Source: Flavobacteriaceae bacterium
GTDB lineage: Bacteria > Bacteroidota > Bacteroidia > Flavobacteriales > Flavobacteriaceae
DNA length: 32,000 bases
Assembly (NCBI GenBank): GCA_965224465.1
Contig: OZ245049.1
Span: forward strand, 60,001 to 92,000
Direction: 5' to 3'
This document shows, piece by piece, positions 214 through 25,716 of this stretch (within the stretch, counting starts at the first letter, position 1; each line of letters starts with the position of its first letter). A program made the position numbers and the translations under genes. Below the pieces are notes generated by a model. It was not told where the DNA came from. It did no database searches and was given only the letters and a program-made list of their open reading frames with translations.

Positions 214-394
214 TTTTAATAGCCAACAACAACCAATAATTAGTAATGATACACTAGCCACTTTAACGCTGTTTATTGCTTCAAGTAAACCAGATGAAAT
301 GGAAACAGTAAAACGATTAGTAATTAGCGTACTCAATAGAAATAAATAAATAAAATGACAGATGCAACTATAATATCAAAAATATGGAACCTTG

Positions 395-730
395 TACCCG
401 CTGCGCAAAGTCTCCCGACTTAGCGCCACCATATTGCTCACATTATCAAAGAAAAAATATAAGAAGATTACATCGTAAGAGATCAAGAAAAGATACATTT
501 TATTACAGCTACTGTTAAAGATGTAATTATAGAAAGCTTAGAGTTTTGTATTCAAGTGCAACAAATTATATAAACAATGAAGGGTTACTTCCAGTGACAC
601 TTGTGGGCAATCCAGTAATTGATTATTAAAAACATCAACGATTAAGAAATTGAATCAAGAATAAAAATGAATGTAGGAAATTAACACATAAAAACAAAGC
701 TCAAAGTCGGGAGACTTTGCGCAGCGGGTA
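395..730 (+). mobile_element. Copy 1 of a ~340-bp hairpin-ended non-autonomous element with a decayed Y1 (RayT/IS200-like) transposase stub
   Basis: A perfect 27-bp terminal inverted repeat: tacccgctgcgcaaagtctcccgactt (395-421) versus aagtcgggagactttgcgcagcgggta (704-730). Each end also folds on itself (403-426 GCGCAAAGTC-tccc-GACTTAGCGC; 699-722). The interior reads EKIHFITATV/KDVIIESLEFCIQ followed by stop codons. Confidence 0.7.
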
Positions 731-734
731 GTTC

Positions 735-792
735 GCCAAATGTATTACTTTTATGTTTGAAAAAAAATAAACATAAAAGTAATACATTTGGC
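735..792. repeat. Perfect 24-bp-arm inverted repeat (hairpin) with a 10-nt loop
   Basis: gccaaatgtattacttttatgttt (735-758), loop gaaaaaaaat (759-768), aaacataaaagtaatacatttggc (769-792). The arms are exact reverse complements. It lies 4 nt after the right end of element copy 1 and 80 nt upstream of the lipoprotein ORF. Confidence 0.85.
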
Positions 793-872
793 TAATTGAT
801 AAATGAAAATCAGTACTTTTAACTTGCCCTACGATTTTTTATACTGGGCGTTGTATATAACTAAAAAAGACT

Positions 873-1499
873 ATGAAAATAAAAATACTTGGAATTACAT
901 TGGGTTTAATTGCCTTACTTAGTTGTAGTGAAAAAGCTGAAAATAAAGTAGAATTGCAAGAAGTTCAGAATGAAACACCTCAAGTACTTGACCAAAATAC
1001 TGATTACAAATTAAGCTCTATTTCCAAAAGATACAGTTCTGATATTATTTCAAAATTATATAATGAAGCTCTTGAGAAAAGTTCAAAACTCAATCAACTT
1101 AATGATGAAATAAATGGCGTTTTAGAAACTAAAAATGATAGCCTTTTAAATTACTCGAAATTTTCACAAACAAATACTAATTATTGGACAACAGCAAATA
1201 GTTATGTAAATCAGATACAAGATTCTGTTCTTAAAGAATCAACTCTTGAAGTTATCAAGGTTCTCGAATCAACATACAAGAATAAAATGTCTATTTACGA
1301 GCAGAAACTAATAGAAATTGACAAAAAGACAATCTCATTAAATGACCAATTGATATTAATGAAATTAGTTGTTACTGAGCCAATGATGAAAAATTATCAG
1401 CGAAATGAAAAACCTAACATTAAATCTTTAGAAATGATTATTAGTGAATATGACAGACTTATAAAAGAAACTGAAGAATACACTAATTTTGAAAAATAG
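873..1499 (+). CDS. Hypothetical lipoprotein (208 aa)
   Basis: ATG start. The N-terminus MKIKILGITLGLIALLSCSE is a signal peptide with a lipobox-like LLSC. The rest is a K/E/N-rich helical sequence with no recognisable enzymatic motif. It is flanked by element copies 1 and 2 in direct orientation. Confidence 0.55.
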   Translation: MKIKILGITLGLIALLSCSEKAENKVELQEVQNETPQVLDQNTDYKLSSISKRYSSDIISKLYNEALEKSSKLNQLNDEINGVLETKNDSLLNYSKFSQTNTNYWTTANSYVNQIQDSVLKESTLEVIKVLESTYKNKMSIYEQKLIEIDKKTISLNDQLILMKLVVTEPMMKNYQRNEKPNIKSLEMIISEYDRLIKETEEYTNFEK

Positions 1500-1521
1500 C
1501 AACGTACAAACAACTAAGTTT

Positions 1522-1863
1522 CGCTGCGCAAAGTCTCCTGACTTAGCGCCACCATATTGCTCACATTAGCAAAGGAAAAAGAATTAAAAAATAAAAGAAG
1601 GTTACATCATAAGAGATCAAGAAAAGATACATTTTATTACAGCTACTGTTAAAGATGTAATTATAGAAGCTTAGAGTTTTGTATTCAAGTGCAACAAATT
1701 ATATAAACAATGAAGGATTACTTCGAGTGACACTTGTGGACAATCCAGTAATTGAAGTATTAAGAAAAGCATCGATTAAGAAATTAAATCAAGAATAAAA
1801 ATGAATGTAGGAAATTAACATATAAAAACAAAGCTCAAAGTCGGGAGACTTTGCGCAGCGGGG
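1522..1863 (+). mobile_element. Copy 2 of the hairpin-ended Y1-stub element
   Basis: Colinear with 395-730 over its whole length. The left end is cgctgcgcaaagtctcctgactt (one substitution) and the right end is aagtcgggagactttgcgcagcggg. There are a few indels and substitutions in the interior. Confidence 0.7.
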
Positions 1864-1923
1864 AAAGAGGCCGAAAAAATTAAGAAAGTTTCACAAAAAA
1901 AAGAAGAAAGTAAAATGAGGCTG

Positions 1924-3040
1924 AATTCAAGTCACAAACGCAACTTTTAGTTAAATAATAATTGTTCCATTACAAATATAGGGTTTTGATATTTATGTCT
2001 CTTCCTAGGTCTGTTATTTAATTTTGTTTCTACCTCTTTGATTCTTTGATCTGTTAGGTTTGTAAAGTCACTTCCTTTGGCAAAATATTGTCTAATCAAA
2101 CCATTTAAATTTTCGTTAGATCCTCTTTCCCAAGAGTGATATGGATGCGCAAAAAAGTAATCAATACATAAATTTTCTGCAACCTGCTCATGGCCTGCAA
2201 ATTCTTTTCCATTATCAGCTGTTATAGTATGTAGATAAGGCTTCCAGTCTTCTAATATTTCATTGATAGCTTTAGTGACAACAACTGCTTCTTTAGAGCT
2301 TACTTTTTTCATTTTAAGCATTCCAGAAGCTCTATCATTTACGGTAAGTATGGCTTGATTATGGTTTTTACCTATGATTAAATCGACCTCTAAATCTCCA
2401 AATCGATTTCTTTGTTCAACAACTTCAGGGCGTTGTTCTATACTAATACGATTCTTTATAACCCCTCTAGAATCCTTTGATGAGCCACGTTTTCTATATC
2501 TCCTTCCCTGTCTGCGAAGGTGTGTATGTAAATCACCATCATTCCTCTTGTCTTCCCTAATATGCTGATATATACGCTCAATAGACACCGTTTCTTTACC
2601 TTGTTTTTTTAGGACACCAACTACTTGCTCAGGACTATAATCGTCTCGCAATAACAACTCTATTGCTTGTTGAATATCTTCTGTAAAGCGTTTTCTTTTA
2701 GGCTTTTCTTTATGACGTTTAGCATACTTTTTTTGGGCTAATTCATGCTTGTAAACTCCATTTCTTTTGTCTGAATTACGCTTAATCTCTTTGCTAATAA
2801 CAGACTTGTCTTTTCCTATAGCAGCTGCTATCTCAACCTGTTTATAACCTTGTTTTAACATGCAACAAATTGTGTATCTTTGCGCTTGGGTGATGTGTTT
2901 CATACAACTTCTTTTTTCGAGATTTGAGACCGTAAGATACATATCCATCAAGACAAGAAAGGTAGGTTTTCCTACTTTTCTGTTTTGAAAATATAACCAT
3001 CATAGAATCAAATCGAAAAGTTGCGTTTATTAGTTGAATT
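1924..3040 (-). mobile_element. IS30-family insertion sequence (complete copy)
   Basis: 25-bp imperfect terminal inverted repeats: aattcaagtcacaaacgcaactttt (1924-1948) versus aaaagttgcgtttattagttgaatt (3016-3040), with 22 of 25 positions complementary. They enclose a single transposase ORF. The exact outer ends are uncertain by a few bp, and no clear target-site duplication was seen. Confidence 0.75.
1947..2903 (-). CDS. IS30-family DDE transposase (318 aa from the ATG at 2903)
   Basis: MKHITQAQRYTICCMLKQGYKQVEIAAAIGKDKSVISKEIKRN is the typical IS30 N-terminal HTH. The DDE region reads DLEVDLIIG ... ITADNGKEF ... SWERGSNENLNGLIRQY. The ORF-track start at 2951 adds 16 poorly supported residues, so I prefer the ATG at 2903. 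Confidence 0.85.
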   Translation of the reverse strand: MKHITQAQRYTICCMLKQGYKQVEIAAAIGKDKSVISKEIKRNSDKRNGVYKHELAQKKYAKRHKEKPKRKRFTEDIQQAIELLLRDDYSPEQVVGVLKKQGKETVSIERIYQHIREDKRNDGDLHTHLRRQGRRYRKRGSSKDSRGVIKNRISIEQRPEVVEQRNRFGDLEVDLIIGKNHNQAILTVNDRASGMLKMKKVSSKEAVVVTKAINEILEDWKPYLHTITADNGKEFAGHEQVAENLCIDYFFAHPYHSWERGSNENLNGLIRQYFAKGSDFTNLTDQRIKEVETKLNNRPRKRHKYQNPIFVMEQLLFN

Positions 3041-4077
3041 TAAGTAACGATATATCTTTGTATAAAAAGGAAACTAAATTATTATTTAAAAAGATTCAAC
3101 AAGAGAGAAAATTTGCAGAGTTTATTGATGAATTAATAAATAGTTATGGTGACTTAATGGATCATATTGATTCCTTTTTATTAAAAGAACAAAGTGAATT
3201 AATCTTACAAATTAAAGGAAGAATCTTAGGATATTATAATGAAATAAACAAAGGAGACTCAAATGATGAAATAATCAGTGAAATAGAATTTAATCAGCAG
3301 AAAGATAAGACTTATTCAATTGATTTAGAGAGAAGTGATGGTTTTAAAAATGCAGGTGTAATTTTAAGTGAAGGGCATTTAAGATCGTTAGGATTATCTA
3401 TTATTTTATCCATAGCTGAATCATCTAATGTTCCATTTATAATTTTTGATGATGTTGTAAATGCTATTGATTCTGAGCATAGAGCAAATATTATAGACAT
3501 GATGTTTGACAATAAATTTTTAAAGAAAATTCAAATAATTGTTACAACTCACGATAGATTATTCTGGGAGAGATTTTGTAATATATATTCTAGTAAAATA
3601 AATAGAAAAGAACTATCTTCAATTAGCTCTTGTTTTAAATATCAAAATCAAGGAATTATCTATGTACCTTATCAAATTTCTTTTGAAGAAAAGATTAAAG
3701 AAGCATTATGTTATTCGGATATTAGACAGGCTTTAGTTTATTTAAGAATATGGTTTGAGACAATATGTTTCAATTACTGTAAAATGGCAAAAAAAACCAT
3801 TACTGGTCAATTTTCGCAAGATAATACAGGTAATTCATCACAATTAATGGTTTCGTTGACTAAAGTTTACAATAACATTATAACTCCCTCTTTTTCGTCA
3901 AGTGATAATTTAAAAGTAATTAAAGACAAATTAAATTGGAAATTTTTAAATCAAGAACATCACTCGTTTGATGAAAACATATTTAATGTAACTCATTCAA
4001 CAACGAGTAGTGAAATTGAAGATATTTTTATAGCAATTAAAAATTTTGAACAAGAAGTATTACAATCAAATAAATAA
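3041..4077 (+). pseudogene. 5'-truncated ABC/SMC-type (AAA_13/PrrC-RloC-like) ATPase gene, cut by the IS30 insertion
   Basis: The ORF-track ORF 3034-4077 starts at a TTG inside the IS30 right IR. The product has a signature-like LSEGHLRSLGLS, a Walker B PFIIFDDV, a D-loop AIDSEH and an H-loop VTTHD. It has no Walker A anywhere. A coiled-coil-like stretch precedes the signature, and about 170 aa of unassigned C-terminal sequence follow. Confidence 0.65.
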
Positions 4078-4292
4078 CGAACGCCAATAACACTCGTACA
4101 CCTCTAAAAACGCCGAAAAAACATTCTAAACAAGCTAGTAAACACCTGAAAGCTACTAAATACGCATAAGTACTCCCCGTAAAAACAACGATACTATCTA
4201 ATGTTAAAACGCCACGTTTACCATAAGAACAAGTACTCTTGTTGAGATTCTGAAAAACAGAGGTTATTGGTTGAAAATTTTTAAAAAAGTAA

Positions 4293-4342
4293 TTAAAAGG
4301 TTAGTGTGCGAAAAGGATATCTTTTGTATATTTGAAGGACGC
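4293..4342 (+). promoter_or_regulatory. Candidate Bacteroidetes-type promoter/operator (P1) upstream of ORF 4509-5183
   Basis: Contains TATATTTG (4327-4334), which fits the Bacteroidetes -7 consensus TAnnTTTG. The 50-nt block matches 6679-6727 at 39 of 50 aligned positions. A hairpin, cgctgtat-gttgt-atatagcg, lies just downstream (~4340-4362). Confidence 0.4.
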
Positions 4343-4508
4343 TGTATGTTGTATATAGCGGATTTATAAATAAATGCACCACTATTGTAGCTATTACGTA
4401 AATAACGTCAAGTTTAGGGTTGCTGTTGTGGATGTAGAGGTAGTTATCTGTAGTTTGAGTCAGCTTTTAGCCTAAATAAAAATGTGATACTTAAATAAAT
4501 CTCTTAGA

Positions 4509-5183
4509 ATGAAAAAAGTAACAGTAAAAAATCTAATTCAATTTCGAGGAAAAAATGAACGAACCAAAATTACGTTTGTTCATAATCTTAAGAAAGAAAA
4601 AAAGAAGTCTGAAGATAGTTCTGGAGGTGATTATTGGATAAGTTGTTTAAGTGCAATTAGAAATTCGTTTAGACTTAATGATGAAAGTTTATTGGATGAG
4701 AAAATAGATTTATTAAGAGATAAAATTGACGTAACAGAAATAAAAAGGATAAAAGACCAATTTCAAAGAAACATTGAGATTGTGGATAGCTTTAAAGAAT
4801 ATGATTTAAAACAACTAAAACCTAATACTGACTTAACTTTTTTAAAGCAAGCTAAAGCCGTGTCTTTATTGAATATTAATGGACTTCCTATAGAAGCTAA
4901 ACCTTGTCACATTTACACCTTTTCCGAAAACAGTAGTGAGGAAATTGGAGGGATTTGGTTTGTCGCAAAATTAAAAGGATTTAAGAAAAGTGAGTTGGGA
5001 ATGTTTACTGATGTACTTTATCGATATTTGGATAAAAATTACTCAAAAGACTTTTACGTTAACCCAGATTATTGTGTTGCTGTTGACCTTTTCAATGCTC
5101 AGGAAGTAAATTATTCAGATATTAAGAATGGAATAGTTCCAATCTTAATTGATAGTACAATAGAAGAACTAAATAAAATATAA
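4509..5183 (+). CDS. Hypothetical protein (224 aa), neighbour of the truncated ATPase
   Basis: ATG start and a clean ORF. There is no motif I can assign (MKKVTVKNLIQFRGKNERTKITFVHNL...GGDYWISCLSAIRNSF...). It is on the same strand as the ATPase remnant, 431 nt downstream of it. Confidence 0.5.
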   Translation: MKKVTVKNLIQFRGKNERTKITFVHNLKKEKKKSEDSSGGDYWISCLSAIRNSFRLNDESLLDEKIDLLRDKIDVTEIKRIKDQFQRNIEIVDSFKEYDLKQLKPNTDLTFLKQAKAVSLLNINGLPIEAKPCHIYTFSENSSEEIGGIWFVAKLKGFKKSELGMFTDVLYRYLDKNYSKDFYVNPDYCVAVDLFNAQEVNYSDIKNGIVPILIDSTIEELNKI

Positions 5184-5242
5184 AATCATGTTAGAATACA
5201 GTATTTCAGGAGTGTGGAAATATAATAATAATGTGATAATCC

Positions 5243-5384
5243 GCTCTCGTACGATTGTATAGTGTGATCGTAGCAATTTTAAGAATACTTAATATGAACT
5301 ATTTTTGCATATTACAATAATACATGAAAAATAAATAATTGTACGGCTTACTCGTTGACGCTACACGATAAAATCGTGCGGGAG
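5243..5384. mobile_element. Short (142-bp) MITE-like element with ~45-bp imperfect inverted ends containing a CACGAT-NNN-ATCGTG hairpin core
   Basis: The left end is gctctcgtacgattgtatagtgtgatcgtagc (from 5243). The right end is 5341-5384, whose reverse complement reads ctcccgcacgattttatcgtgtagcgtcaacgagtaagccgtac. The same end types recur at 5752 and 6546-6588. The right sub-terminal interior (ataatacatga.aaa.taaataa.tg.a.ggc) also matches the long copy. Confidence 0.5.
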
Positions 5385-5417
5385 TGGGGTTGCCACACAT
5401 AAAAAAAACAGAAACCA

Positions 5418-5687
5418 ATGGGAACATTAGAAAACAAACTTAAAACAGTTTCTGAAAAATACAGAAAGGAATATGCTTCAGTTTGCGAACCAATAAATGG
5501 TTTGGAATCTAGACGTGATAACGCTTTGAAATTTGACCCAATTAATGAAAAATTTAGGGACCAAATAATTGATGAGTTAAATAAATATTTAGAAAACAAT
5601 ATCGATTCTGACAAAGAGTCAGCCATTAAAATAGGACAAAAATATATCAAGGGTTTTGAGAAATATCTTATTGATCCTTTTTGTTAA
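5418..5687 (+). CDS. Small hypothetical protein (89 aa)
   Basis: ATG-initiated ORF lying between the two MITE-like elements. It is a helical K/E-rich sequence with no recognisable domain. The overlapping minus-strand ORF 5348-5650 looks less protein-like. Confidence 0.35.
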   Translation: MGTLENKLKTVSEKYRKEYASVCEPINGLESRRDNALKFDPINEKFRDQIIDELNKYLENNIDSDKESAIKIGQKYIKGFEKYLIDPFC

Positions 5688-5831
5688 TTGGTTGAATAAT
5701 GATTTCAAATCCTTCTTTATTCAATTCTTTTTCAATTTGAAACAATTTTCAGCTCTCGCACGATTGTATCGTGTGACCGCAGTAATTTAAGACTATTTTT
5801 TTAAAAAAAAAGACAATAAAAGTGTAATAAA

Positions 5832-6290
5832 ATGAATATTGAAAATACTTTAAAAAACTTATATAAGAGGTTAAAAGATTGTAATAATAAACATAAATCA
5901 GGAATTTTGTTTTTAGTGATTCAGTTGAAAACAGAAAATGAAGATTTAAAAAACCTTAAACAAACTAAATATAAGGATATTAAGTTATTTATAAAATATT
6001 ATATTAAATCTAGTGATAAAAGGGGGTTTGGGTATGATATTGTTAATGTAAGTAAGATCGTAAAGGCAATATCATATAATTCAAATATAAAAGAGAGATG
6101 TGAGCTGACTGTTTTTGCTATTAGTGTCTCGCTGCGCAAAGTCTCCCGACTTAGCGCCATCATATTGCTCATATTAGCAAAGAAAAATGAATTAAAAATA
6201 AAAGAAGGTTACATCATAAGAGATCAAGAAAAGATACATTTAATTACAGCTACTGTAGTGGATTGGGTAGATGTGTTTACAAGGAAATAG
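5832..6290 (+). CDS. Chimeric ORF: ~98 aa of unknown sequence fused in frame to the Y1-transposase stub of element copy 3 (probably not a functional gene)
   Basis: From about residue 100 the translation (VSLRKVSRLSAI...KEGYIIRDQEKIHLITATVVDWVDVFTRK*) is encoded by the inserted element, whose left end is at 6130. Confidence 0.3.
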   Translation: MNIENTLKNLYKRLKDCNNKHKSGILFLVIQLKTENEDLKNLKQTKYKDIKLFIKYYIKSSDKRGFGYDIVNVSKIVKAISYNSNIKERCELTVFAISVSLRKVSRLSAIILLILAKKNELKIKEGYIIRDQEKIHLITATVVDWVDVFTRK

Positions 6291-6505
6291 TACAAAGATG
6301 TAATTATAGAAAGCTTAGAGTTTTGTATTCAAGTGCAACAAATTATATAAGCAATGTAGGGTTACTTCCAGTGTCACTTGTGGACAATCCAGTAATTGAT
6401 TATTAAAAAAATCAACGATTAAGAAATTGAATCAAGAATAAAAATGAATGTAGGAAATTAACACATAAAAACAAAGCTCAAAGTCGGGAGACTTTGAGCA
6501 GCTGG
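6130..6505 (+). mobile_element. Copy 3 of the hairpin-ended Y1-stub element (least deleted copy)
   Basis: Colinear with copies 1 and 2 but retains a net 36 extra nt, so it encodes GYIIRDQEKIHLITATVVDWVDVFTRK. This matches the conserved N-terminus of Bacteroidetes RayT/IS200-like Y1 transposases (..Y.FRDQ...YF.TFTVV.WIDVFTR..YKD....SL..C) as I recall it. The right end is degenerate (ttgagcagctgg). Confidence 0.7.
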
Positions 6506-6678
6506 ACTCTATTTACATGAATAATACATGATAAACTAAATAACTGCATGGCTTACTCGTGGACGCTACACGATACAATAGAATGCAGTAGCGATGGTGG
6601 TTATTCATGCTGTATCAGAGGTTTTACTAAGTTTATGAATAACAAGAGTTAATAGCTAAAAATTTCCGAGTTGAATTG

Positions 6679-6727
6679 TTAAAAAGATAGTATGCGGGAA
6701 GAAATATTTTGTATCTTTGAAAGATGC
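6679..6727 (+). promoter_or_regulatory. Candidate promoter/operator (P2) of the channel-nuclease operon
   Basis: TATCTTTG (6712-6719) fits the -7 box TAnnTTTG. The block is 39 of 50 identical to P1 at 4293-4342. A perfect 15-bp direct repeat, aaattaaattgatta, occurs at 6736-6750 and 6781-6795, between the box and the ATG at 6843. Confidence 0.4.
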
Positions 6728-6842
6728 AATGGAGAAAATTAAATTGATTATAATAAGTTTTTATGTTCCATAAAATAATGAAATTAAATTGATTAAATGC
6801 ATTTATTAATTCCTGACATTTTGTAATCCCCAATGACTAAGA

Positions 6843-7646
6843 ATGATCAAAAAACTCTTTTTAAACGATAAATTCATACTAGTATTAATTTTACTAAATG
6901 CAATAATAATATTTTTTACGGGCTTTGATTTAACTATTAATAATAAGTTTCTTTTTTCACTTACAGATCATTTGATAACATGCTTATTTATTGTTGAATT
7001 AATAGTTAAGTTTAACGAGTTTGGAATTAAAAATTATTTCAAATCTAATTGGAGAAGGTTCGATTTTATTCTAATTTCCTTATCAGTACCAACATTGATT
7101 GCGTTTGTTGGAGATGTAGAACTCACTAGTTTTAGTTACTTTCTAGTATTTAGGATTTTGCGTGTGTTTAAATCATTTCGATTTTTAAAATTCATACCTG
7201 GAATTAATCATTTAGTAAGAGGTGTTAGTAGAGCATTAAAAGCATCAGTTGTTGTATTAATAGGCTTTTTTATTTATATATTTATAATTGGATTATTTTC
7301 GTTCTCCTTATTTAAAGAAGTTTCACCTGAATTTTTTGGAAATCCGTTAATGGCACTTTATTCTATATTTAAAATTTTCACTATTGAAGGTTGGTACGAA
7401 ATTCCAGAACTAATAACTGAAGGTCTATCACCTATAGCGTCGTTCTTTACGTATTTATATTTTATTTTCGTGGTGATGTCAGGAGGGATATTTGGTTTGT
7501 CACTTGTAAATTCAATTTTTGTAGATGCTATGGTAAGTGACAATAATGACGAACTTGAAAAGAAAATAGAAATATTAAATAGTAAGATTGATACATTATT
7601 AGCAAAAAAATATATATATAATGAAATTAGAAAAAATATTAGATAA
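6843..7646 (+). CDS. BacNav-type voltage-gated cation channel subunit (Ion_trans family, 6TM, 267 aa)
   Basis: Six hydrophobic segments. S4 has positive charges at every third residue (FRILRVFKSFRFLKF). The pore loop FTIEGWYE resembles the NaChBac/NavAb filter TLESW. S6 is FFTYLYFIFVVMSGGIFGLSLVNSIFVDAM. The C-terminal coiled-coil-like tail is DELEKKIEILNSKIDTLLAKK. Confidence 0.8.
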   Translation: MIKKLFLNDKFILVLILLNAIIIFFTGFDLTINNKFLFSLTDHLITCLFIVELIVKFNEFGIKNYFKSNWRRFDFILISLSVPTLIAFVGDVELTSFSYFLVFRILRVFKSFRFLKFIPGINHLVRGVSRALKASVVVLIGFFIYIFIIGLFSFSLFKEVSPEFFGNPLMALYSIFKIFTIEGWYEIPELITEGLSPIASFFTYLYFIFVVMSGGIFGLSLVNSIFVDAMVSDNNDELEKKIEILNSKIDTLLAKKYIYNEIRKNIR

Positions 7647-9474
7647 AGTAAATTCGCTAGAAAAGAATTCTTTTTTAAAAATTATAGATACTATTATTTC
7701 AAACAGGCCTAAGAATTATAAGGAAATTGAAAAGATACTATCGGAAAACAATACTAACCTTAAAGGCATAGATAACATCAATATTGCTAAAGTTTTTAAC
7801 CTTATTACAGATGAATTTACAAATGTGATAAAGCAAGAATTTGTAGATACATCCTCACAGCTTGATATTTTAATTGATATTATTATCCGAGATGCTCATA
7901 ATTTGATTAAAGAGGATTGGTTTGTAAAACTTTATGAAAAAGAAATTAGTGGTCTTAAAAGTAAAACGGAAGCCCTAAGTCAAAACCTAGAAAATAATAA
8001 ATCAGACATAGAGAATCAACGAAAAAGAGATTATTTGATTTATAAATCATGTGTAGAGACTGCCTATTTTAATGATAACGTGAGTAATAGAGATACGAAA
8101 ATAACAAGTGATGAATTATCTATTCTGTTAACGCTATCTAATGAACTTAAATTATCACAAGAAGAAATTAAGCTAATAAATTATATCGTAATTCCTCCTG
8201 TCAAATTACAAATTGAAAAAGTAATTAATGATTTAAAATCGGTTGGACTTATATTTTATTCAAAGAAAAACAGACAAGTTTATGTTGCGGATGAGGTTGT
8301 AAGAGTCTTAAGGGGAATTCGTAAAAAACAAGTTGCGGATAAATTTTATCGTCGTTTTTTAAAATTATTAAGAGAACCTCAAATAAATATAGTCTGTAGG
8401 AATCATAATATTGATATAAAATTATCTTTAGATCATAAAATAAAAAACATCATTAATGAGGGGATTTCATTTTCAAATTTGTTGGTAAATGAATTACATA
8501 AGGAAGGGACTTCATTAAATGAAAAAAAGAAATTTGTTAAAGAAATTTGGGAAAAAGGATTTGAAATCTCTGTTCCTCTTAAGGGAATAACCTTAGAAGA
8601 AAAAATTGAAAATTTAATAAGGTATTTTGATGAAATAGAGCAAGATGATAAAGTTGGAATCTCGAATGATGGTTATGGTCAACTTCTTTCTGATTTACAC
8701 GATACCTTTCCTTTACTAAATAATTTGATTCGATCAGAATTTGAAATTCAAAATGAATTTGTTTTGAACAATGTGTATTTGCGGGATTACAATATAAAAC
8801 CTAGGGATATTCTGGATATGATTGAGCAAAAGGATTTAATGAAGTTTTGCAATAAATATAATCTAAAAAAGCGAGGGAATAGTATTTTAAACATTCTTGA
8901 TGGTTATAAAGATGCTGAAAATCTATTTATAGAAAATTTCGAAAACATTGGTTTCAGAGACTTAAGATCACTGAAAGAGAATGGGATAAATATAAAAGAA
9001 GCAGAGTTAGGTGTTAAATTTGAAGACATTACAAAATCAGTATTTGAAAAATTAGGTTTTAATGTGGATGAGGATTTAAAAAAGAATCTTAATACTAAGA
9101 AAAATAAAATTGATTTAGTGTTAAATTTAGGAGATCAAGGTCTAATCATAATTGAATGTAAAACGGTAAAAGAGAGTGGTTATAATAAATTCAGTTCTGT
9201 AACCAGACAAATGAAATCGTATATAGATTTAGCGAAAGATAATGGACATAATGTTGTGAAATCATTGCTGATTGCACCGGGATTTAGTGATGAATTTGTA
9301 AGTGATTGTGAGATAGACTTTGAATTAAATTTATCATTGATAACAGCTTCTTCTCTTTTAAAAATATTAGAGGCTTTTAAATGTTCAAAACACAAAGCAT
9401 TTCCTTATCAACTCTTGATGAAAGACGTATTGATTAAAGAGGATAGAATAATTAAAGCGATTAATAAGAAATAA
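7621..9474 (+). CDS. 617-aa protein with a C-terminal Mrr-like PD-(D/E)xK restriction-endonuclease-fold domain and an unassigned N-terminal ~460 aa
   Basis: The ATG at 7621 overlaps the channel ORF by 26 nt. The C-terminus reads FEDITKSVFEKLGFNV...KIDLVLNLGDQGLIIIECKTVKE...VKSLLIAPGFSDEF...LSLITASSLLKIL. This fits the Mrr_cat pattern (FE..v..ll...Gf.v, D in a beta strand, then E-x-K). The N-terminal part is helical and contains several SAP/HeH-like stretches. Confidence 0.7.
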   Translation: MKLEKILDKVNSLEKNSFLKIIDTIISNRPKNYKEIEKILSENNTNLKGIDNINIAKVFNLITDEFTNVIKQEFVDTSSQLDILIDIIIRDAHNLIKEDWFVKLYEKEISGLKSKTEALSQNLENNKSDIENQRKRDYLIYKSCVETAYFNDNVSNRDTKITSDELSILLTLSNELKLSQEEIKLINYIVIPPVKLQIEKVINDLKSVGLIFYSKKNRQVYVADEVVRVLRGIRKKQVADKFYRRFLKLLREPQINIVCRNHNIDIKLSLDHKIKNIINEGISFSNLLVNELHKEGTSLNEKKKFVKEIWEKGFEISVPLKGITLEEKIENLIRYFDEIEQDDKVGISNDGYGQLLSDLHDTFPLLNNLIRSEFEIQNEFVLNNVYLRDYNIKPRDILDMIEQKDLMKFCNKYNLKKRGNSILNILDGYKDAENLFIENFENIGFRDLRSLKENGINIKEAELGVKFEDITKSVFEKLGFNVDEDLKKNLNTKKNKIDLVLNLGDQGLIIIECKTVKESGYNKFSSVTRQMKSYIDLAKDNGHNVVKSLLIAPGFSDEFVSDCEIDFELNLSLITASSLLKILEAFKCSKHKAFPYQLLMKDVLIKEDRIIKAINKK

Positions 9475-9493
9475 CTGAATTACCAACAAAAAA

Positions 9494-9526
9494 AAGCCAA
9501 CACTCCCAAAAAAGGAACGTTGGCTT
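9494..9526. terminator. Bidirectional intrinsic terminator between the convergent nuclease-domain gene and pfaD
   Basis: The stem is aagccaac (9494-9501) / gttggctt (9519-9526), with inner tcc/gga pairing. It is flanked by an A-run upstream and a T-run (9525-9529) downstream. Confidence 0.6.
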
Positions 9527-9551
9527 TTTAAATAAATATTCAGTCATTAGA

Positions 9552-11156
9552 TTACCCCACAACCAAACGCTCCACCTCAGGTTCCAATTCCAATTGCAAC
9601 AAGCCAATCGGTAATTCCACCCCTTGGTCCTTAATCGTATTGATACGATGCAAATACGCAGCACCTTCCAACAACTGTAAAGCAACATCCGCAACTTTAC
9701 GGTTTTTAGCTTCGCTTAGGTAGGAATCTTTGGTCCATTCGTTAAAGGCACCCATGGCAGGGCCACACCAAATTTGATAGTCCATAATTCTGTCTGGCGT
9801 ACCAGCATTTGCCCAGTTAGAAGACAAGCCTAGGTACCAACGGAAGATCAATGCCATTTTTCGTTTTGGGTTTTGCTTGGCTCTTGCTATTTGTTCTGGA
9901 TCTCTTTCTTCGAAGAAACTCACACAACCTTCCCAAACCTTTTCTAAAGGCATTTTAAAAGTCTGTTTCTCTAATTTTATACGTTCGTCTGCTGGGATTG
10001 CATCGATGCTCTCGTAGCGGTTGTAATAATCGTATAGTTTTTTTGCTCTGGCACCGAATAAGGTACCGCGTTTTAAGACTTGCAATTCCACGCCCAATTC
10101 GAACATATCGGAAGCGGGAGCCATGGTCACATCCGTAGAAGCGACTTTGGACAATAATTCTTTTACACCCTCCGAAGTACCTGATTCTATACAAGCTTGG
10201 TTGATAGAACCCGTTACGATATAGGCAGCACCCATGGCAAAAGCAGCTAATGCCGCCGCAGGGGTTCCGATACCACCGGCTGCACCCACACGGAGTTGTT
10301 TTTTGTACTGGTATTTTTGTTGAAGTTCGTCTCTTAATTGTAAGATGATGGGGAACAAGACTACCAAGGGACGGTTGTCCGTATGTCCTCCAGAATCTGC
10401 TTCTACGGTAATATCATCCGCCATGGGTACTTGTTGTGCAAGCGTGTGTTGCTCTTGAGTGATTTTCCCTGCGGCGAGTAAGTTGTCTAAGAATTTAATA
10501 GGTGCGGGAGACATAAAACGTTCTGCCACTTCTTTTCGAGAGATTTTCCCGATCACTTTATTTCCGATGATTATTTCTCCTTGTGCGTCTCGGCTCAATC
10601 CAACGGCTCTGTATTTTACAATTTGCTCGGATAAGTTCATATACGCCGAGGCTTCTACGACTTTTACTTTGTGTTTGATAAATAAATTCACAGCACCTTC
10701 TTCCAATGCCTTTTCAATAGGACTGTGGATGAGGTTGCAAGCGTAGGTTTGTGTAGGCAAGCCTGCTTGAATTTCGGCAATGGCTGCTTCTACACGTGCA
10801 GGAATCATTCCGGCGGCTCCAAAGGAACCCATCAGTTCGTTTCTTCCTAAAGAAATCACCATATCGGTAGAGGCAATTCCGTTTGCCATGGCGCCTCCTT
10901 TATAGGCGTAGCTGAGGTTGTAGTCTTCTTTAAAAGATGTGTCTCCGAGGTCTTTTGCTGTAAAAGCGGGAACAATTGCTTTTAAAAACAAACCATTTCC
11001 TTCAGATTGGATTGTTCCTGTATTGGTAATTCCGATGCGTCCTGATAAATCTTTTACCACATAGCATGGAATGGCAGTGTTTTTTAATTTTTCGGACATT
11101 CCTTTGTGGTCAAAGGAGATCTCTCTGGGAGATCCTATCCATTTTAAATCGATCAT
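9552..11156 (-). CDS. pfaD: PUFA synthase enoyl reductase PfaD (FMN-dependent, 2-nitropropane dioxygenase-like)
   Basis: GGAMANGIAS...MGSFGAAGMIPARVEAAI...CNLIHSP...VEASAYM...VEADSGGHTDNRPL...VGAAGGIGTP closely parallels Shewanella PfaD as I recall it. The ORF-track start at 11198 is a TTG, so I prefer the ATG at 11156 (MIDLKWIG...). Confidence 0.9.
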   Translation of the reverse strand: MIDLKWIGSPREISFDHKGMSEKLKNTAIPCYVVKDLSGRIGITNTGTIQSEGNGLFLKAIVPAFTAKDLGDTSFKEDYNLSYAYKGGAMANGIASTDMVISLGRNELMGSFGAAGMIPARVEAAIAEIQAGLPTQTYACNLIHSPIEKALEEGAVNLFIKHKVKVVEASAYMNLSEQIVKYRAVGLSRDAQGEIIIGNKVIGKISRKEVAERFMSPAPIKFLDNLLAAGKITQEQHTLAQQVPMADDITVEADSGGHTDNRPLVVLFPIILQLRDELQQKYQYKKQLRVGAAGGIGTPAAALAAFAMGAAYIVTGSINQACIESGTSEGVKELLSKVASTDVTMAPASDMFELGVELQVLKRGTLFGARAKKLYDYYNRYESIDAIPADERIKLEKQTFKMPLEKVWEGCVSFFEERDPEQIARAKQNPKRKMALIFRWYLGLSSNWANAGTPDRIMDYQIWCGPAMGAFNEWTKDSYLSEAKNRKVADVALQLLEGAAYLHRINTIKDQGVELPIGLLQLELEPEVERLVVG

Positions 11157-11404
11157 TTTAGTGTCTATATTTTGAGTCTTGTGTCCTTTAATTTTCAATA
11201 AGTATTATTATTAATGGACTGCTTAAGACGGTTGTTTATTGCCTTGCTTCTAAAATTTTTTTAAAGAAGCCTCTTTATTGTTTTTCAAATCTTTTTTTAA
11301 TCCCACCAGTGGGTTTAATTTTCCGATGCTTGTATCGAAATGATTAAGGGTTGTTTTCTCTTTTTTATGCCTCGTAGTCCTGAGCTTATTGACTGTTGTA
11401 TTTC

Positions 11405-11508
11405 GCATTAAGGATAGAACGGCCTGTTTGAGCTCTTTTTTTGTTTTTTTACAAAAAAAAGCGAGTAGTGAAAGCCTGACCCGACCTTTTTTGGGAGGGG
11501 AATGCCCA
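11405..11508. repeat. Intergenic repeat family member X (related to 27589-27697)
   Basis: Shares with 27589-27697 the ordered blocks gcat..ggatag.a..ggc, an all-A/T hairpin tttttttgt-tttttt-acaaaaaaa (11436-11459), ccgacctttt and atgccc. Confidence 0.5.
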
Positions 11509-11524
11509 CATTATTTTAAAAATT

Positions 11525-11559
11525 AAGGAGGAAGATTTTATGCATTTTCTTCCTCCCTT
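11525..11559 (-). terminator. Hairpin immediately after the pfaC stop codon (possible intrinsic terminator/attenuator)
   Basis: On the minus strand the sequence reads AAGGGAGGAAG-aaaatgcataaaat-CTTCCTCCTT followed by AATTTTTAAAATAA. The core stem is 8 perfect bp. The T-tract is short and interrupted. Confidence 0.4.
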
Positions 11560-11564
11560 GTTTT

Positions 11565-14500
11565 TTATGCTTCCTGAATTCCAATGGCTAAATCTGTCAA
11601 TTGATAGATTCTTGTGCCTTCGTTCCACAGATACGCATTGGCGATAATTACCAAGGTGTCTTCTCGTTTTTCGATGGTTTTAAAATGCACTTCTAAATGC
11701 ATGTTTTCCACGTTTACTTTAATTTGTCCGCGGTATTTCCATTCGGTTTTATTATTAGCGACCTGTACAAAGCGTGGTTTTTTAAAGTCTTTTCCTAAGT
11801 CTTGTTGTAGGGCGAATAACTGCATGGCTTGTGAAATGGCTTCGACGCCTAAGGATCCTGGCATTACAGGGTCTGAGTAAAAATGACAGGTAAAGAACCA
11901 GTCGTAGGTATGGATGGCTTTGGAGCAATGGATGTATCCTTTGCCAAATTCGCCGCCGTCTTTTACGAGCAATCCGCTGTCTAGTAAATTCAATTGATCT
12001 GTTGATAAACGGAAGGTGTTTGTTGGATCATTTTCTTTATACAATTTCATTTTTGCGTATAAAGAGTCGAGCTTGATTTGGAAATAATCCTTGGGGGTCA
12101 ACTTGTTTTGTACATACCATGCGGGTACGTCTTTCCCATTGTCCAAGCCTACTTGTTGTGCCAAGGCTTCTTTAGGGAAGAATCCGAAGGAGGAGAATCC
12201 TTTATAGAACACATAGCCGTCTACGGAGACTTCGAAGAGGTATTTCTGAATTACAAAACCGCCTAATGCCGTTGAGGAGGTTAAGGTTGCTTTGTTGTGA
12301 ATTACTTTTCCTCTAAAGTCGGTACCTGCGGGGAGGTCGATCATTTCGCCATCTCCATCCAAGTTTCTAAAGTATAAATCTTTGTCTGGGAATTGTAGGG
12401 TGGATCCTAAATAGGCGCCTAACAATCCACAGGGTTGCAATGCTATTTCCATTAAAATGGCGTACGGCATGGTCATGGAAGCGTTTTGTGTGTAATACCA
12501 CGCATCGGCTGGCACGTCGTATTCTGTCCAAATATTTGTTGCTTTTTTAAAGTTAAATCGTTCTCCGTCTATTTTAATAACACGGCTTACGACTTGCAAG
12601 TCGGTATTTGGTTGGCGGGACAAGGCTCTGTTGTCATACACGGCGTATTCTGGACCAAAACAATCTGCCAATCTGCCTAAGGCAAAGGTTTCGATGTCTT
12701 GTTCGTTGAGCAATACGTTCTCGGTTATTTTTTTAGGTTGTTCTAGGTATTTTGGATTGTCTTTTTCTCTTATTTGCAATCCTAAATCGGCAAAATGAAC
12801 GGTAATTACACCGTCTACAATAATTTCTAAATCGCCAATCACATAAGGGTCTGGCAACAATCCGATGTCTTTAATTACCAAGCGATACATTAATTTCTTA
12901 TCATTAGGGGTCACTTCTTTTCTACAACGTACTTTTTGAGCAACTCCGTAGATAGGTTGGAAACGTGCATCTTTTTTAAGGCGTTGTAGCCCTAGCATCA
13001 TCATAAAGAAACGGAGTAAGTTACCGCCGCCTTCTGCTTGTAAAGATCCTGCCAATACTTGGTCGTCTCTAAAATGACAAGGGAAATACCAATCGTCTGG
13101 ACTTAGGTCTTTTTCTGCTATAATTTCTCCCAATCCATAAGGACCTCCGTGGACGTCTGCTTTGGTAATGCGATCCAACATCAGCATTTTTTCTGGTGCT
13201 AAACGGATGGATTTATTTTTACCGTTGGGGAAGTAGGAGATATCGTCAAAACATGTATGTGCATCTCCGTTGATAAGATGTCTTAAATCCTGAATATCAA
13301 ATGCGGTCTTTTTAGTAGTTAAAAAGGGAATGAATTTTTTCTTTTCTACGCCCGCTAAAATTTTCTTTTCAGCTTCGGTATATACAACACCATTTCCTTT
13401 ACTCAATTCTTCATCGGTAAAGAAGCCAGCCACTCCATTGGTCATTTTTAAGACAAGGCGGTCTTCTACAAAGCATTCGTAGCTAAAGAAGAACAATAGG
13501 TTACGTCCATTTCTTACAAAGGAATTGATAGAGATATCATAACGTAGGGTTTGCCCTTCAAAAGGCAGGTCGTCCGTAAAGGTAAGCGTACAGTCGAGTA
13601 GGCGATAGACATAGTCTCCTTTGTTTTCTAAGTCGATGCCTAAATAAGAGATCAACATCAAATCACATTGTCCTGATTCTACCGAAACTGCCCATGGGAT
13701 TTGTGTATCGGTGGCATAGCCTGAATTGTAAGGAATGTCGTATTCCGTTTGCATGGTAGACGGTTTGTATTCGCCTAGCTTGGCATTTAATCCTGTGACT
13801 CTACTCACCAATAGGTAAGGATCCATAGGAAGCATCACACGGCGTTTGTATTGGTCGATTACATTGTATTCCGCACCAAAGACATTGCTTATTTTACCTT
13901 CGGAAAATTCGATTAAATCTTCTTTGTTAAAAATAATGTTTTTCCCTTTTAAATGATTTGGGTCTGTGTAATCTTGTAATTTTAAGCCGTTTTCTGCGAT
14001 TGTTGTTGCAGTTTTAGGTGTTGTGTTAGCTATCATATACCTTTTTTTCTCTAATGTGTTTGTGCTAGTAATTGGGATTTTTAAGTCCGTTTTTTGGGGT
14101 GTATTTGCTTCTTTCTTTAGGTGTTTAATTTGAGCAAATTGATGTTTCATATCTTCGGATAATAAGACATCGTATATACGTCTTCCTCCTGTTTTAACTT
14201 TTTTGCTAAATCTTTTTTTAAGGATTGTTTCTTGTTGTTTTGGATATAACAGTCCTAGGTCTACCTCAATGCCGTTTGCAATTAATTGTGCCAAGCACTC
14301 GAACAATGATTGTACGGAACTGCTTCCTTTCTTATCGATGGCACAGCTAGCATGGGTTTTTTGATCCAAGGTTCCTTTGATCCAATTGCTACAGGTACTA
14401 TTAGGGCCTAGCTCTACAAAAGTGCTAAAGCCATTTTTTGACATTTGATGAGCAAAGGCAGGGAAATCTACTGTTTTATAACATACTTCTGTCGAATTTT

Positions 14501-17500
14501 GGGCGATTTTTAAACTGTCCATCGGAAGTTTTTTTCCTGTTAAACTAGAGTAGAATTCGATGTCAGGACGTTGTTCCAAAGGGAAATTGTGCATTTCAAT
14601 AAGTCCGTCGTATTCCTTTTTACAGAATTCGTTATGAATAATGTTTTGAAAGGGAACCAATATAGATCCACAATTTAATTCGGAGATAAGGGCTTTACAC
14701 TGGCTTTTATCACCCGAAATAATCAATTCCTTGTCCGAATTCACAAAAGTGATAGAGACTTTGTCAAATTTAGAAATTACAGCTGCAACGTCTTCTTTTT
14801 TTGCTAATAAAATCCAGCTTTGCCACCTTTCTTTTGCTTCGGTTGTAGTTATATTCCACGCATCTGCCAATACTTCTAAGTTTCCAGAAAATTTATTTTT
14901 AAAGATAGGGGAGTTGCGAAACACCTTGGTACCTTCACTTGGATTCCAAACACCAAAAGCATACCACATAGAACTGCATTCTCCCATGCTATATCCCATA
15001 GCAGCTTTTGGTTTGATACCAAAATAGTTTCTTAAAATATGGGTGTACAACGTGGCGTATAAAACACCTGCCGACATCATAGAAATGGCGTCTTTTTGTA
15101 TGGGAGGAGTCTGTTCTGCGGTGGATTGTTTTTTAGGGAAAATATAATTTAAGGAAAAGAATTCCTTAAGGTTTGGAATGCGTGTTTCAAAATCGTGGAG
15201 TAGCTGGGGGAAGAATTGAAATAAATCCTGTCCTAGCCCTTCATAACTGGTGGCGGATCCTGGATATACAAATGCTAAATCTCCCTTGGCTGCCGAGGGT
15301 GTTGGTGTAAAGAACGTACCGCTTGGTAATTTGAGGTCTGTCCCTGTTTTAAACGAAGTGTCTACTTGTTTTTCTAAGAATTTAAGGTCTTGTAAGAGTG
15401 CGTTTTTATCCTTAGCAATCAATACAATTCGATGGCTTTTTTTAAGGGTTTTTTCCTTGTTAAAATGTGCTTGGGCTAGGGCATTCAAGCTTGTTGTAGC
15501 AATGTTTTTGTGAAGGGTTGCTATTTGTGCTTTGAGCTCGTTGGCATTGTTTCCTTGTAAAACCAATATATGCGTACCCAAATAATTATTGATAGGTGCT
15601 TTGTCTTCTCTGATTACTTCTGACAATTGCACGCGATCTTGCAATCCTAAATTCACCATTGCCTGTCTCGGAACAGCTGTTTCGTTTACCCAAGGTCTTG
15701 ATTGACTAGGGAAATAATAATTACTGTTTTTGAGTGCCTCATTTTTAAAAGCTTTCCAGTTAGGAATGCCTGGGATAAATTGATGGTATACACAAAGTGC
15801 TGTCTTTACGATAGCTGCCAGTCCAGAAGCGGCAAAGGTATGTCCAATGTTTGTTTTTACCGATCCTAAGGCAACCTTGTTTAAGGGTTTTGCTTGTATT
15901 AATTGTGCTTGCTCTAATTGGTCTTCTTGGTGAAACCCTGTAGCGACTAATTCTTGCAAAGCGATATTGGGATGGATGTCTAAATCACCAATGGCTTCTA
16001 TTTTTGCATAGACAGTATCTGCTTTAGAGACATCTTCATTGGCTTTTAAAACGATGGCTGCGGCTCCTTCACCAATCAACCAACCGTAGTCGTCTGCATT
16101 AAATGATAGGCTAGGGCGTTTGTTTTGGTTTACCTGAGTGACTAAATTTCTCAAGAGTACAGCTTCCATTCCTGCGGAGAATTCTACAGCACCTACAACT
16201 ACGGCATCTACTTCGCCTAAGGACAACATGTTTTGTGCAACTTCTAAGGCTCTGGTGGTTCCTTGATTTCCGTTACTAATGGTAAAGGAAGGCCCACTGA
16301 AATCCCAAAGGGCAGAAATACGACTCGACATAATATTTCCTACAAAACTTGTATGCTGACTCGGCGCTTGTACCTTTCCTATTTGATATAGGATGTTTCT
16401 ACACTCTGCTAAAAGGGTTGTTTTTTGAGTTTTGTCTAAATCGATACCTGCCATGGCTAAGGCTTTGTCCAATTGCCATTGACTGTCCCAACGTGCTAAG
16501 TAATGATGAATTGCCAATTCTGGATTCATGGCAACTAATACCGCTACGTTTTGTCCCTTTTTAAGATTCGATTTTTGAATGGCTTGATCCGCCACTTTTA
16601 AAATCAAGGCTTGTTGAGGTTCCATGGTATCAATTTCGTTGGGTTGGATTTTATAACGCATTAAATCCATGTCAAAATCAGCAATGTAATTTCCTTTCGG
16701 TGCCTGTTTTGTATCTAAACCAAAGGAAGCCATGACTTCTGATTGGGCTTCAAATCCTTTCCAACGATTCTTTGGCATCTCAGAAAAATGCTGTTTTCCT
16801 TCAAAAATAGTTTGGTAAAAATGATCTAAATTATCGCAATCGCCAAAATGAACTTCCATACTGGTAATTGCCATTTCTTTTAGAGGGGTCGCTTTTAAAG
16901 GGCGATGTGCATCTTTATTATGGCTTTCTACGACCAAATGCGCATTGGTACCACCAAAGCCAAACGAATTGACCGCGGCTTGCTTATGGTTTGTTTCCCA
17001 TTTTAAAGGTTCTTCTATGATTTGCTCTCGTTGAAACCAACCATTTTCTGACTGAATGGCTTCGCCCATATTAATTCCAGGAGGAATCATATCGTGCTCC
17101 ATAGAAAGCAATACCTTTATTAAACTTGGCATACCGGCTGCGGTAAGCATGTGTCCCATATTTGACTTTACAGAACCCAATCTGATTTTGTCTGGGTTTT
17201 CACCAAAAAAACTTTCTAAAGAATTGATCTCTGTGACATCGCCAAGGGGAGTTCCAGTAGCATGACATTCGATATAAGAAGTGTCCTTTTTAGAGAGACT
17301 TCCATTGTAGGCTCTTTCATACGCCAAGGTTTGTCCTTTTGGATTGGGGCTTAATAAAAATTTACCAGCACCATCATTGGACAATCCAATACCTGCAATC
17401 ACACCGATAATAGTATCTCCATCTCTTTCGGCATCAGACAATCGTTTTAATAAAATCATTCCTGCGCCTTCGGAAGAGACCAAGCCAGAAGATTCCTTGT

Positions 17501-18251: not shown

Positions 18252-18329
18252 TTTTTTAATGGTTGGACGGTTGGGGTATTTGGATTTGGTTGGGGCGTAT
18301 TGCAATACGCCCTTATTTTATACATTGGC

Positions 18330-20618: not shown

Positions 20619-20824
20619 TTTGGATTTTACAGCGATTGTTAATTCGCTTCCTTCATCGGTAATAACTACAGGTAGTAGGCTAGGGATGTGTTGTACTAAG
20701 AAATCTACTTTAGGAATAAATTTTATAGCGATAGATTTTCGGGGTACTTTGTGAAAGTTAGTAGGTAAGGAGAAGTCCTGTGTCGGTATCTTCTCCTCAC
20801 GTACTGTATTGTTTGGGGCTAAGC

Positions 20825-25711: not shown

Positions 25712-25716
25712 ATATG

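Follow-up and report, generated by a model that had tools for sequence, protein, structure and literature searches.

Prokaryotic voltage-gated channels have been studied mainly as structural models, and to our knowledge the physiological roles of the prokaryotic homologues of voltage-gated Na+ and Ca2+ channels are largely unknown outside a few Bacillus phenotypes. In studies of the Zorya defence system, a conserved ion-driven inner-membrane complex is reported as the likely sensor of invasion, with soluble nucleases that vary between systems as its effectors. RexAB of phage lambda and the membrane effectors (Cam1, Chp1) of cyclic-oligonucleotide-based antiphage signalling systems (CBASS) and of type III CRISPR systems join a cytoplasmic part that recognises nucleic acid or a signal to an ion pore, and depolarise the membrane in response. 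Among restriction enzymes, FokI and Nt.BspD6I/N.BstNBI (about 580-600 residues) have a helical, winged-helix N-terminus and a C-terminal PD-(D/E)xK domain with the catalytic arrangement E...D...E-x-K. The Mrr/Type IV enzymes are solitary, without a methyltransferase, and combine N-terminal DNA binding with a C-terminal PD-(D/E)xK domain. Of the channels, CavMr has the selectivity filter TLEGWVD, in which Ca2+ selectivity is determined by the Gly at position 4 and a polar or acidic residue stands at position 7, two features that canonical bacterial voltage-gated Na+ channels (BacNavs) do not have (PMC7041947).

Here we describe a channel of this last kind that forms a two-gene unit with a nuclease. 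The DNA analysed (the window) is a stretch of 32,000 nucleotides from a Flavobacteriaceae bacterium (contig OZ245049.1, positions 60,001 to 92,000 of the forward strand), and the unit lies at window positions 6843-9474. It consists of two overlapping open reading frames (ORFs), with the lengths and the overlap that a sequence-only reading of the same DNA had given:

6843..7646, + strand: channel gene, 267 amino acids (aa), Ion_trans-family cation channel of the voltage-gated type with six helices, AnclNav/CavMr-like
7621..9474, + strand: partner nuclease gene, 617 aa, FokI-like PD-(D/E)xK, without a Pfam family, equal to PHROG 34709
7621..7646, + strand: ORF overlap of 26 nt, where the nuclease gene starts before the channel gene has ended

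The two genes are co-transcribed, and the overlap suggests that they are also translationally coupled. On our reading the unit is a module of the defence type, with the nuclease as effector and the channel as an added sensor of membrane potential or Ca2+. This reading is tentative, and we put it somewhat short of an even chance; the evidence for the pairing itself is considerably firmer and is given first.

The survey of gene neighbourhoods that the sequence-only reading had called for shows that the two genes recur side by side in many Bacteroidota, so that its first ground for refutation, homologues that are never adjacent, does not apply. In total 89 loci with a homologue of the 617-aa protein were collected. 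An alignment-based metagenome scan gave 80 loci; a scan of genome contigs with the single protein gave only 7, the peptide patterns being too specific. Gaps within loci were measured from the ends of tblastn alignments. A channel gene on the same strand lies directly beside the 617-aa homologue in 22 of the 89 loci, and in 23 of the 65 that have enough flank to judge (loci added later and the window included). The channel is mostly upstream, with a gap of -23 to +17 nt, the order being reversed in locus L005, where the channel follows the 617-aa gene after 8 nt. In relatives the two genes overlap, by 4 or 11 nt, or lie no more than about 17 nt apart. A search that started from the channel showed, in both Polaribacter SA4-12 and Lutibacter A64, a channel gene that comes first and has its last 4 nt in common with the 617-aa gene. 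Of the 57 best-ranking homologues of the partner, 25 or more agree in contig size with a channel homologue, on a reading of two hit tables. Clustering of the flanking ORFs from the 89 loci gave no second recurrent neighbour of the 617-aa genes.

The two proteins also appear to have evolved together, pairwise distances between channels and between partners being correlated with r=0.90 (n=23 pairs). Homology among relatives at the DNA level (blastn) extends from the ATG of the channel gene (6829-6843) to the stop codon of the partner (9474) and no further, so that what moves is the two ORFs together. The pairing goes far beyond what chance would give, and a coupling of channel and nuclease is well supported. 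Window positions 6843-9474 form a mobile two-gene accessory module. The 617-aa protein is nevertheless independent of the channel: 42 assessable loci, in other clades, carry the 617-aa gene without it, and the channel-linked partners fall into two clades plus L005.

In one relative (L003, a metagenome-assembled genome (MAG) of Flavobacteriaceae, NORP270, 88% identical), DNA resembling the pfaD gene that follows the unit in the window (L003 15126-15514 against window 9589-9977) is found about 5 kb further downstream of the cassette. The cassette thus occupies the same neighbourhood in two genomes, one of which has extra genes in between.

The channel belongs clearly to the voltage-gated family. 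Residues 10-234 match Pfam Ion_trans (PF00520) with E=2.1e-27 and 96.3 bits against a cut-off of 25, and there are more than 2300 homologues. The best matches among PDB sequences are repeats of T-type Ca2+ channels (Cav3.1), followed by NaChBac and NavMs; domain I of Cav3.1 is the best of all, and has the filter motif in common with the channel. The functional elements are as follows:

7143..7196, + strand: S4 voltage-sensor helix, LVFRILRVFKSFRFLKFI, with R104, R107, K110, R113 and K116 at every third position
7380..7400, + strand: TIEGWYE, the selectivity filter (residues 180-186), in which position 4 is a Gly (G183) and position 7 is acidic (E186)
7548..7610, + strand: C-terminal neck on the cytoplasmic side and, predicted from the heptad pattern of the sequence, a short coiled coil, DELEKKIEILNSKIDTLLAKK

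The spacing of the S4 charges is that noted previously. Together with E52/K56 in S2 and D74 in S3, which are the counter-charge positions, with the Ion_trans domain, and with a T-x-E/D-x-W filter, they provide the sequence features expected of a prokaryotic voltage-gated channel (Ion_trans, at least four S4 R/K, S2/S3 acids and the filter). R104, R107, K110, R113, K116, E52 and D74 are invariant in the alignment of homologues, the filter T[VIL][ED]GW[YF][ED] is present in 120 of the 120 closest homologues, and the S6/neck segment is invariant across the family. The sensor charges and the filter are under purifying selection; because these and the S6/neck are all invariant, the channel is under selection as a working voltage-gated channel, and not as a mere membrane anchor. 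In the neck, L238, E239, K241 and K248 are invariant. The hydrophobic a/d positions of the C-terminal heptads (L238, I242, L245, I249 and L252) are consistent with the short coiled coil that had been proposed, which remains a prediction from this pattern.

The earlier description of the channel as BacNav-type holds for the voltage-gated Ion_trans fold and not for the filter, which is of the AnclNav/CavMr type and differs from that of canonical Na+-selective BacNavs. With G183 at position 4 and E186 at position 7, the channel would be expected to be Ca2+-selective. Like CavMr and AnclNav (Shimomura et al. 2020, PMC7041947), it is an Ion_trans protein with one domain and six helices in about 260 aa, and it has R/K at every third position of S4 and the filter T-x-E-G-W-x-(D/E). 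It differs in the filter, which in CavMr has V at position 6 and D at position 7 and here has Y/F and E, and in its setting: no nuclease-coupled pair of AnclNav channels is reported in the CavMr paper (PMC7041947), whereas here the pair appears translationally coupled. We therefore describe it as a new member of the AnclNav/CavMr kind, predicted to be of the homotetrameric type.

The partner is less easily classified, as it has no significant match in Pfam, NCBIfam or PADLOC. Its matched family in PHROG (phrog_34709, E=2.8e-115) is of unknown function. The following parts can be distinguished:

7621..8985, + strand: N-terminal region, residues 1-455, mostly helical, with at least one winged-helix-like unit (163-233), from the secondary structure of the model
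8998..9471, + strand: C-terminal PD-(D/E)xK nuclease domain, residues 460-617, from invariant catalytic candidates and Foldseek
9022-9024 (E468), 9112-9114 (D498), 9154-9156 (E512) and 9160-9162 (K514), + strand: catalytic candidates, in addition to Q530 and Y534

The motifs FE (E468), IDLV (D498) and IIIECK (E512, K514) had led to the partner being called Mrr-like. The PD-(D/E)xK motifs stand, and the partner is like the Mrr/Type IV enzymes in being solitary and in its order of domains. However, the Pfam Mrr_cat match (E=0.011, 16.3 bits) is weak and below the cut-off of 21, no Mrr_N domain was detected, and the N-terminal region is three times larger than in Mrr; over its whole length the protein looks like FokI.

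This last comparison comes from structure prediction. A first AlphaFold2 model was poor (predicted local distance difference test score, pLDDT, of 65), the alignment being shallow, with sequences at least 64% identical. Representatives with 26-48% identity were added to the alignment, and the model obtained from it was much better, with a pLDDT of 89.8 and a predicted template modelling score (pTM) of 0.81. A Foldseek search of the PDB with this model has FokI (2fok) as its top match, over the whole length (E=4e-4, 613-631 aligned columns), followed in order by the nickase Nt.BspD6I, the FokI-like small subunit of R.BspD6I, and then NucS/EndoMS and MspJI. For 5lhc the E-value is 1e-3, and both 2fok and 5lhc have a probability of at least 0.98. 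The earlier and poorer model had also picked Nt.BspD6I. Given the confident model and these matches, a nuclease fold is supported despite the sub-threshold Mrr_cat score. A search of the partner profile against PDB sequences gave a sole match, 4uhp, at E=0.72, and in a structure search of BFVD the matches were at the level of the nuclease domain only.

The partner thus shares with the FokI-type enzymes its size (617 against about 580-600 aa), a helical N-terminus with a winged-helix-like unit, the C-terminal nuclease domain and the catalytic arrangement. In the model it has the separate N-terminal region and C-terminal cleavage domain of a Type IIS enzyme, at template modelling scores (TM-scores) to the FokI-type matches of 0.18-0.25. 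It differs from them in having no detectable sequence similarity and no recurrent methyltransferase: methyltransferases are absent from the 25 commonest Pfam families among 97 ORFs that flank 617-aa genes, and the cognate enzyme that accompanies a Type IIS nuclease is not found alongside, one locus having an adjacent HsdM. A Type IIS-like, FokI-like architecture over the whole length is accordingly supported but not proven, and the N-terminal region is putatively the DNA-recognition part. The sequence-only reading had left room for a housekeeping origin of this region; no housekeeping family matches it, and what it resembles is the recognition part of FokI and Nt.BspD6I.

We regard the partner as a new family of nucleases with a FokI-like architecture. 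The family has more than 2800 matches, nearly all of about 617 aa and all annotated 'hypothetical', in approximately 395 clusters at 50% identity, most of which are fragments. It is found mainly in Bacteroidota, with 34%-identical relatives in Pseudoalteromonas. Contigs that bear the labels of Promethearchaeota and Methanobacteriota MAGs also have homologues, 58-68% identical (P0049; L009 2472-2861), which could be binning contamination or recent transfer. Conservation of the catalytic residues, on which the sequence-only reading had made its case depend, is complete: D498, E512, K514, Q530 and Y534 are invariant in homologues down to 26% identity. This argues for an active nuclease, and tells against the earlier suggestion that the domain might be an inactive DNA-binding sensor.

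The same channel clade is also found next to a second nuclease. At seven loci it abuts an unrelated protein of about 350 aa with an N-terminal PD-(D/E)xK domain of the HSDR_N/HSDR_N_2 type, encoded at:

L092, 5776-6825
L099, 3696-4778
L100, 1124-2245
L101, 335-1429
L102, 1675-2766
L110, 4001-5053
L111, 4001-5044

The spacing ranges from an overlap to a 7-nt gap, and both gene orders occur. In Draconibacterium orientale (L110) the pair lies beside a DDE transposase, and in Puteibacter (L111) it is followed by patatin and RnlA/RnlB genes. Matching contig sizes imply four more such pairs. The HSDR_N family is large, with at least 8000 matches in Bacteroidota that are annotated 'type I restriction endonuclease' and have a C-terminal domain without assigned function; it matches phrog_4225 (endonuclease). 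Its catalytic residues are also invariant, and it too occurs without a channel, in L112 (beside an AAA_15/AAA_21 ATPase) and in L113. The 617-aa and HSDR_N proteins align only at the nuclease core E...D...ECK...Q (hhalign E=2e-4), and no shared domain that could serve as a channel-binding module was found outside it. In the channel tree, the HSDR_N-linked channels and a solo channel (L093/94) nest between two clades linked to the 617-aa protein, and partners have therefore been exchanged. Since one channel clade pairs with two unrelated nuclease families, the channel looks like a portable add-on. What emerges is a pair of nuclease families that can each stand alone, some sub-lineages of both having gained the same kind of channel.

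A further neighbour was seen at a single locus. In L098 a channel (1825-2595) that is 61% identical to the one in the window overlaps by 8 nt the gene of a 329-aa radical S-adenosylmethionine (radical-SAM) protein (2588-3577). This protein matches the PADLOC models of prokaryotic viperins (pVip) with E=3.5e-17, in the radical-SAM core only. A radical-SAM enzyme may therefore be a third kind of channel partner.

The occurrence of each gene on its own raises the possibility that there is no functional coupling at all, and that a solitary restriction-type nuclease and an ordinary physiological cation channel simply travel together as a cassette. The nuclease would then be modification-dependent, or a Type IIS enzyme whose methyltransferase is encoded elsewhere. 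Defence and accessory genes often cluster without interacting, and the linked partners carry no distinguishing signature. We nevertheless consider this quite unlikely, because at every linked locus the ORFs share nucleotides or directly adjoin, in both gene orders, because homology is limited to the two ORFs and their distances are so closely correlated, and because a second nuclease family has been paired independently with the same channel clade.

If the two are coupled, the signal could pass in either direction. In our reading of channel as sensor and nuclease as effector, the nuclease would be able to act alone, as it does in most lineages, and the channel would have been added in some of them as a membrane-level sensor or licensing device. 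Depolarisation, for example on phage genome entry (which it accompanies) or on envelope damage, would open the channel; entry of Ca2+, or a movement of the cytoplasmic C-terminal domain of the channel, would in turn switch the nuclease on, recruit it or set it free close to the membrane. The target would most likely be invading DNA. That the nucleases are effectors and not sensors is indicated by the invariant catalytic residues and the solo occurrence of both families, and the sensor or licensing role is the simplest one for a channel that has kept its voltage sensor and is shared between systems.

The reverse, which was the main idea of the sequence-only reading, would be a FokI-like protein that recognises foreign DNA and opens the channel, so that a flood of cations depolarises the cell and the infection is aborted, as it is by RexA/RexB; with a voltage-gated channel the collapse would be regenerative. 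The tight coupling of the genes and the co-evolution of channel and partner suit this scheme as well, as does an N-terminal region of DNA-recognition type, and in CBASS, type III CRISPR and Rex systems the effector is commonly a membrane pore. It is fairly unlikely in our view. Invariance of the catalytic residues in both partner families would not be expected of a pure sensor, and favours a channel that senses and a nuclease that acts over a nuclease that senses and a channel that kills. Nucleases that are solo in most lineages must also carry their own output, a complete voltage sensor suggests gating by voltage and not by a partner, and no surface specific to the linked proteins was found in the 617-aa family.

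The closest functional analogy for the module as we read it is Zorya (ZorAB with ZorC/D/E and related proteins), which likewise has an ion-conducting membrane part and interchangeable soluble nucleases. The likeness would be one of logic only, as there is no homology: ZorAB is a 5:2 stator of the MotAB type and not a tetrameric voltage-gated channel, there is no PADLOC match to Zorya here, and in the present case the effectors are also found as single genes that stand on their own. RexAB and the CBASS and type III CRISPR effectors are more distant, and are not homologous either. In these it is the pore, which lacks a voltage sensor, that acts as effector, and its partner in the cytoplasm is not an active, conserved nuclease.

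Several observations weigh against a channel-licensed nuclease. One close channel homologue (L093/94) is solo. Comparison of channel-linked with solo 617-aa proteins revealed no residue signature, only three scattered positions, and a dedicated protein-protein interface is for this reason disfavoured. The Ca2+ selectivity of the channel is read from the filter motif, and Ca2+ usually inhibits cleavage by PD-(D/E)xK enzymes and does not activate it. The TM-scores to the FokI-type proteins are low (0.23-0.25 for FokI), at E-values of approximately 1e-3 to 1e-4; low TM-scores can arise when multi-domain proteins differ in domain arrangement. The genes that flank the 617-aa genes (the same 97 ORFs, mostly from solo loci) are largely housekeeping, with few PADLOC matches. 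Finally, neither the channel nor the 617-aa protein of the window has a match in PADLOC-DB v2.0.0 at E up to 0.1, and the HSDR_N partners and their channels have none at E up to 0.01. The defence role, any physical or ionic coupling and the direction of signalling are what we infer.

The surroundings of the unit in the window have the character of a mobile-element-rich island, as had been noted. Low G+C content marks it out: 26% in the gene pair and 29% over window positions 1-9500, against 39% in the adjacent pfa cluster, which looks like native DNA. The other features are:

1947..2951, - strand: IS30-family transposase (NF033563, E=1e-86)
3034..4077, + strand: truncated AAA_21/SMC_N ATPase, C-terminal half only, with PADLOC similarity to mad3, AriA and AbiLi; abuts the IS30 transposase
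4509-5183, 5418-5687 and 5832-6290, + strand: island ORFs without a family match; the 89-aa ORF has a sub-threshold match to RE_CfrBI (E=0.012)
6712..6719, + strand: candidate Bacteroidota-type -7 promoter element, TATCTTTG, which fits TAnnTTTG, 124 nt 5' of the channel ATG
9491..9529, no strand assigned: hairpin (stem of 17 bp, A-run at one end, T-run at the other), between the convergent nuclease gene and pfaD
9552-25780 (- strand), 25717-26334 (- strand) and 26453-27097 (+ strand): pfa-type polyunsaturated fatty acid synthase cluster

The truncated ATPase is probably a defence gene cut by the insertion of IS30. An ORF at 873..1499 was considered as its missing N-terminal half and rejected, as it is lipoprotein-like. 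In the pfa cluster a PfaD_N/FabD_helical_ins protein is followed by three ORFs, of 2246, 762 and 1651 aa; a TetR regulator and also a phosphopantetheinyl transferase belong to it.

Downstream of the unit, the hairpin at 9491-9529 has the stem and the A- and T-runs of the bidirectional intrinsic terminator proposed by the sequence-only reading, and is predicted to act as one. The promoter-like block that had been proposed upstream fared less well. The -7-like motif TAnnTTTG is found 50 times over the whole window against 48.8 expected, and sigma-70-like sites 18 times against 22.4 expected from shuffled sequence, so that neither is above chance; nor is the DNA upstream of the channel gene conserved among relatives. 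The non-coding stretch 5' of the channel gene (6291-6842, about 550 nt) is unusually long and is likewise not conserved in relatives. A GC-rich hairpin of 10 bp within it (6476-6499), followed by a T-run on the minus strand, resembles a terminator for leftward transcription.

At other loci, insertion sites differ between genomes and have no common target, and a selfish element of the homing-endonuclease kind was for this reason rejected. Some of the neighbours are typical of defence or mobile elements: L001 adjoins HigB/HTH genes, and L095 an integrase and PemK. The more distant Pseudoalteromonas homologues of the partner, on chromids (34% identical; L096 6001-7845 and L097 171-2015), lie beside SIR2, ATPase, SLATT, HNH and DUF3427-helicase genes. 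A 35%-identical gammaproteobacterial homologue (L108 5980-7842) is a moron in a Mu-like prophage, on the opposite strand between the genes for the Mu-like protease I and a virion morphogenesis protein. The channel was not found among the plasmids of PLSDB. Association with defence islands is suggestive, not established.

A function outside defence would also be compatible with a mobile unit of this kind. It might serve a prophage or mobile element (in host takeover, superinfection exclusion or addiction), or form part of a stress or DNA-processing pathway triggered by depolarisation. Both nuclease families are PHROG families (34709 and 4225), one homologue lies within the Mu-like prophage, and many solo copies are found among housekeeping genes. 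Against this, a tblastn search of 50,697 GenBank phage genomes found neither the channel nor the partner, insertion sites are variable, and toxin-antitoxin or defence genes are neighbours at several loci. We consider such a role unlikely.

We return to the reading of the unit as a defence module with a nuclease effector and a channel sensor. In its strongest form, a true voltage-gated channel of the Ca2+ type would be an immune sensor: depolarisation by a phage would open it, and a Ca2+ or conformational signal would license interchangeable nucleases, possibly also a radical-SAM enzyme. This version is somewhat unlikely, and if true would amount to an 'excitable-membrane immunity'.

We rate the combination of channel and nuclease as categorically new in composition; its function we infer. 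The sequence-only reading knew of no such pairing, and none has come to light in PADLOC or NCBIfam, nor any published account of a nuclease or defence operon with a voltage-gated channel in it, bearing in mind that absence from the libraries searched is not proof. If the association proves to be one of co-transfer only, it has still brought to light a new family of solitary nucleases and a clade of CavMr-type channels in marine Bacteroidota. The nuclease family, with more than 2800 proteins, no Pfam, NCBIfam or PADLOC model, a FokI-like layout and no methyltransferase, may interest enzyme engineers.

For the channels, a recurrent and co-evolving pairing with two unrelated restriction-type nucleases provides a concrete function to test. 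If our reading is true, membrane voltage or Ca2+ entry would join the infection signals that are read by bacterial immunity. In its strongest form it would also give AnclNav/CavMr-type channels their first clear physiological role, and voltage-gated Ca2+ signalling to an enzyme of the cytoplasm would have a precedent in prokaryotes.

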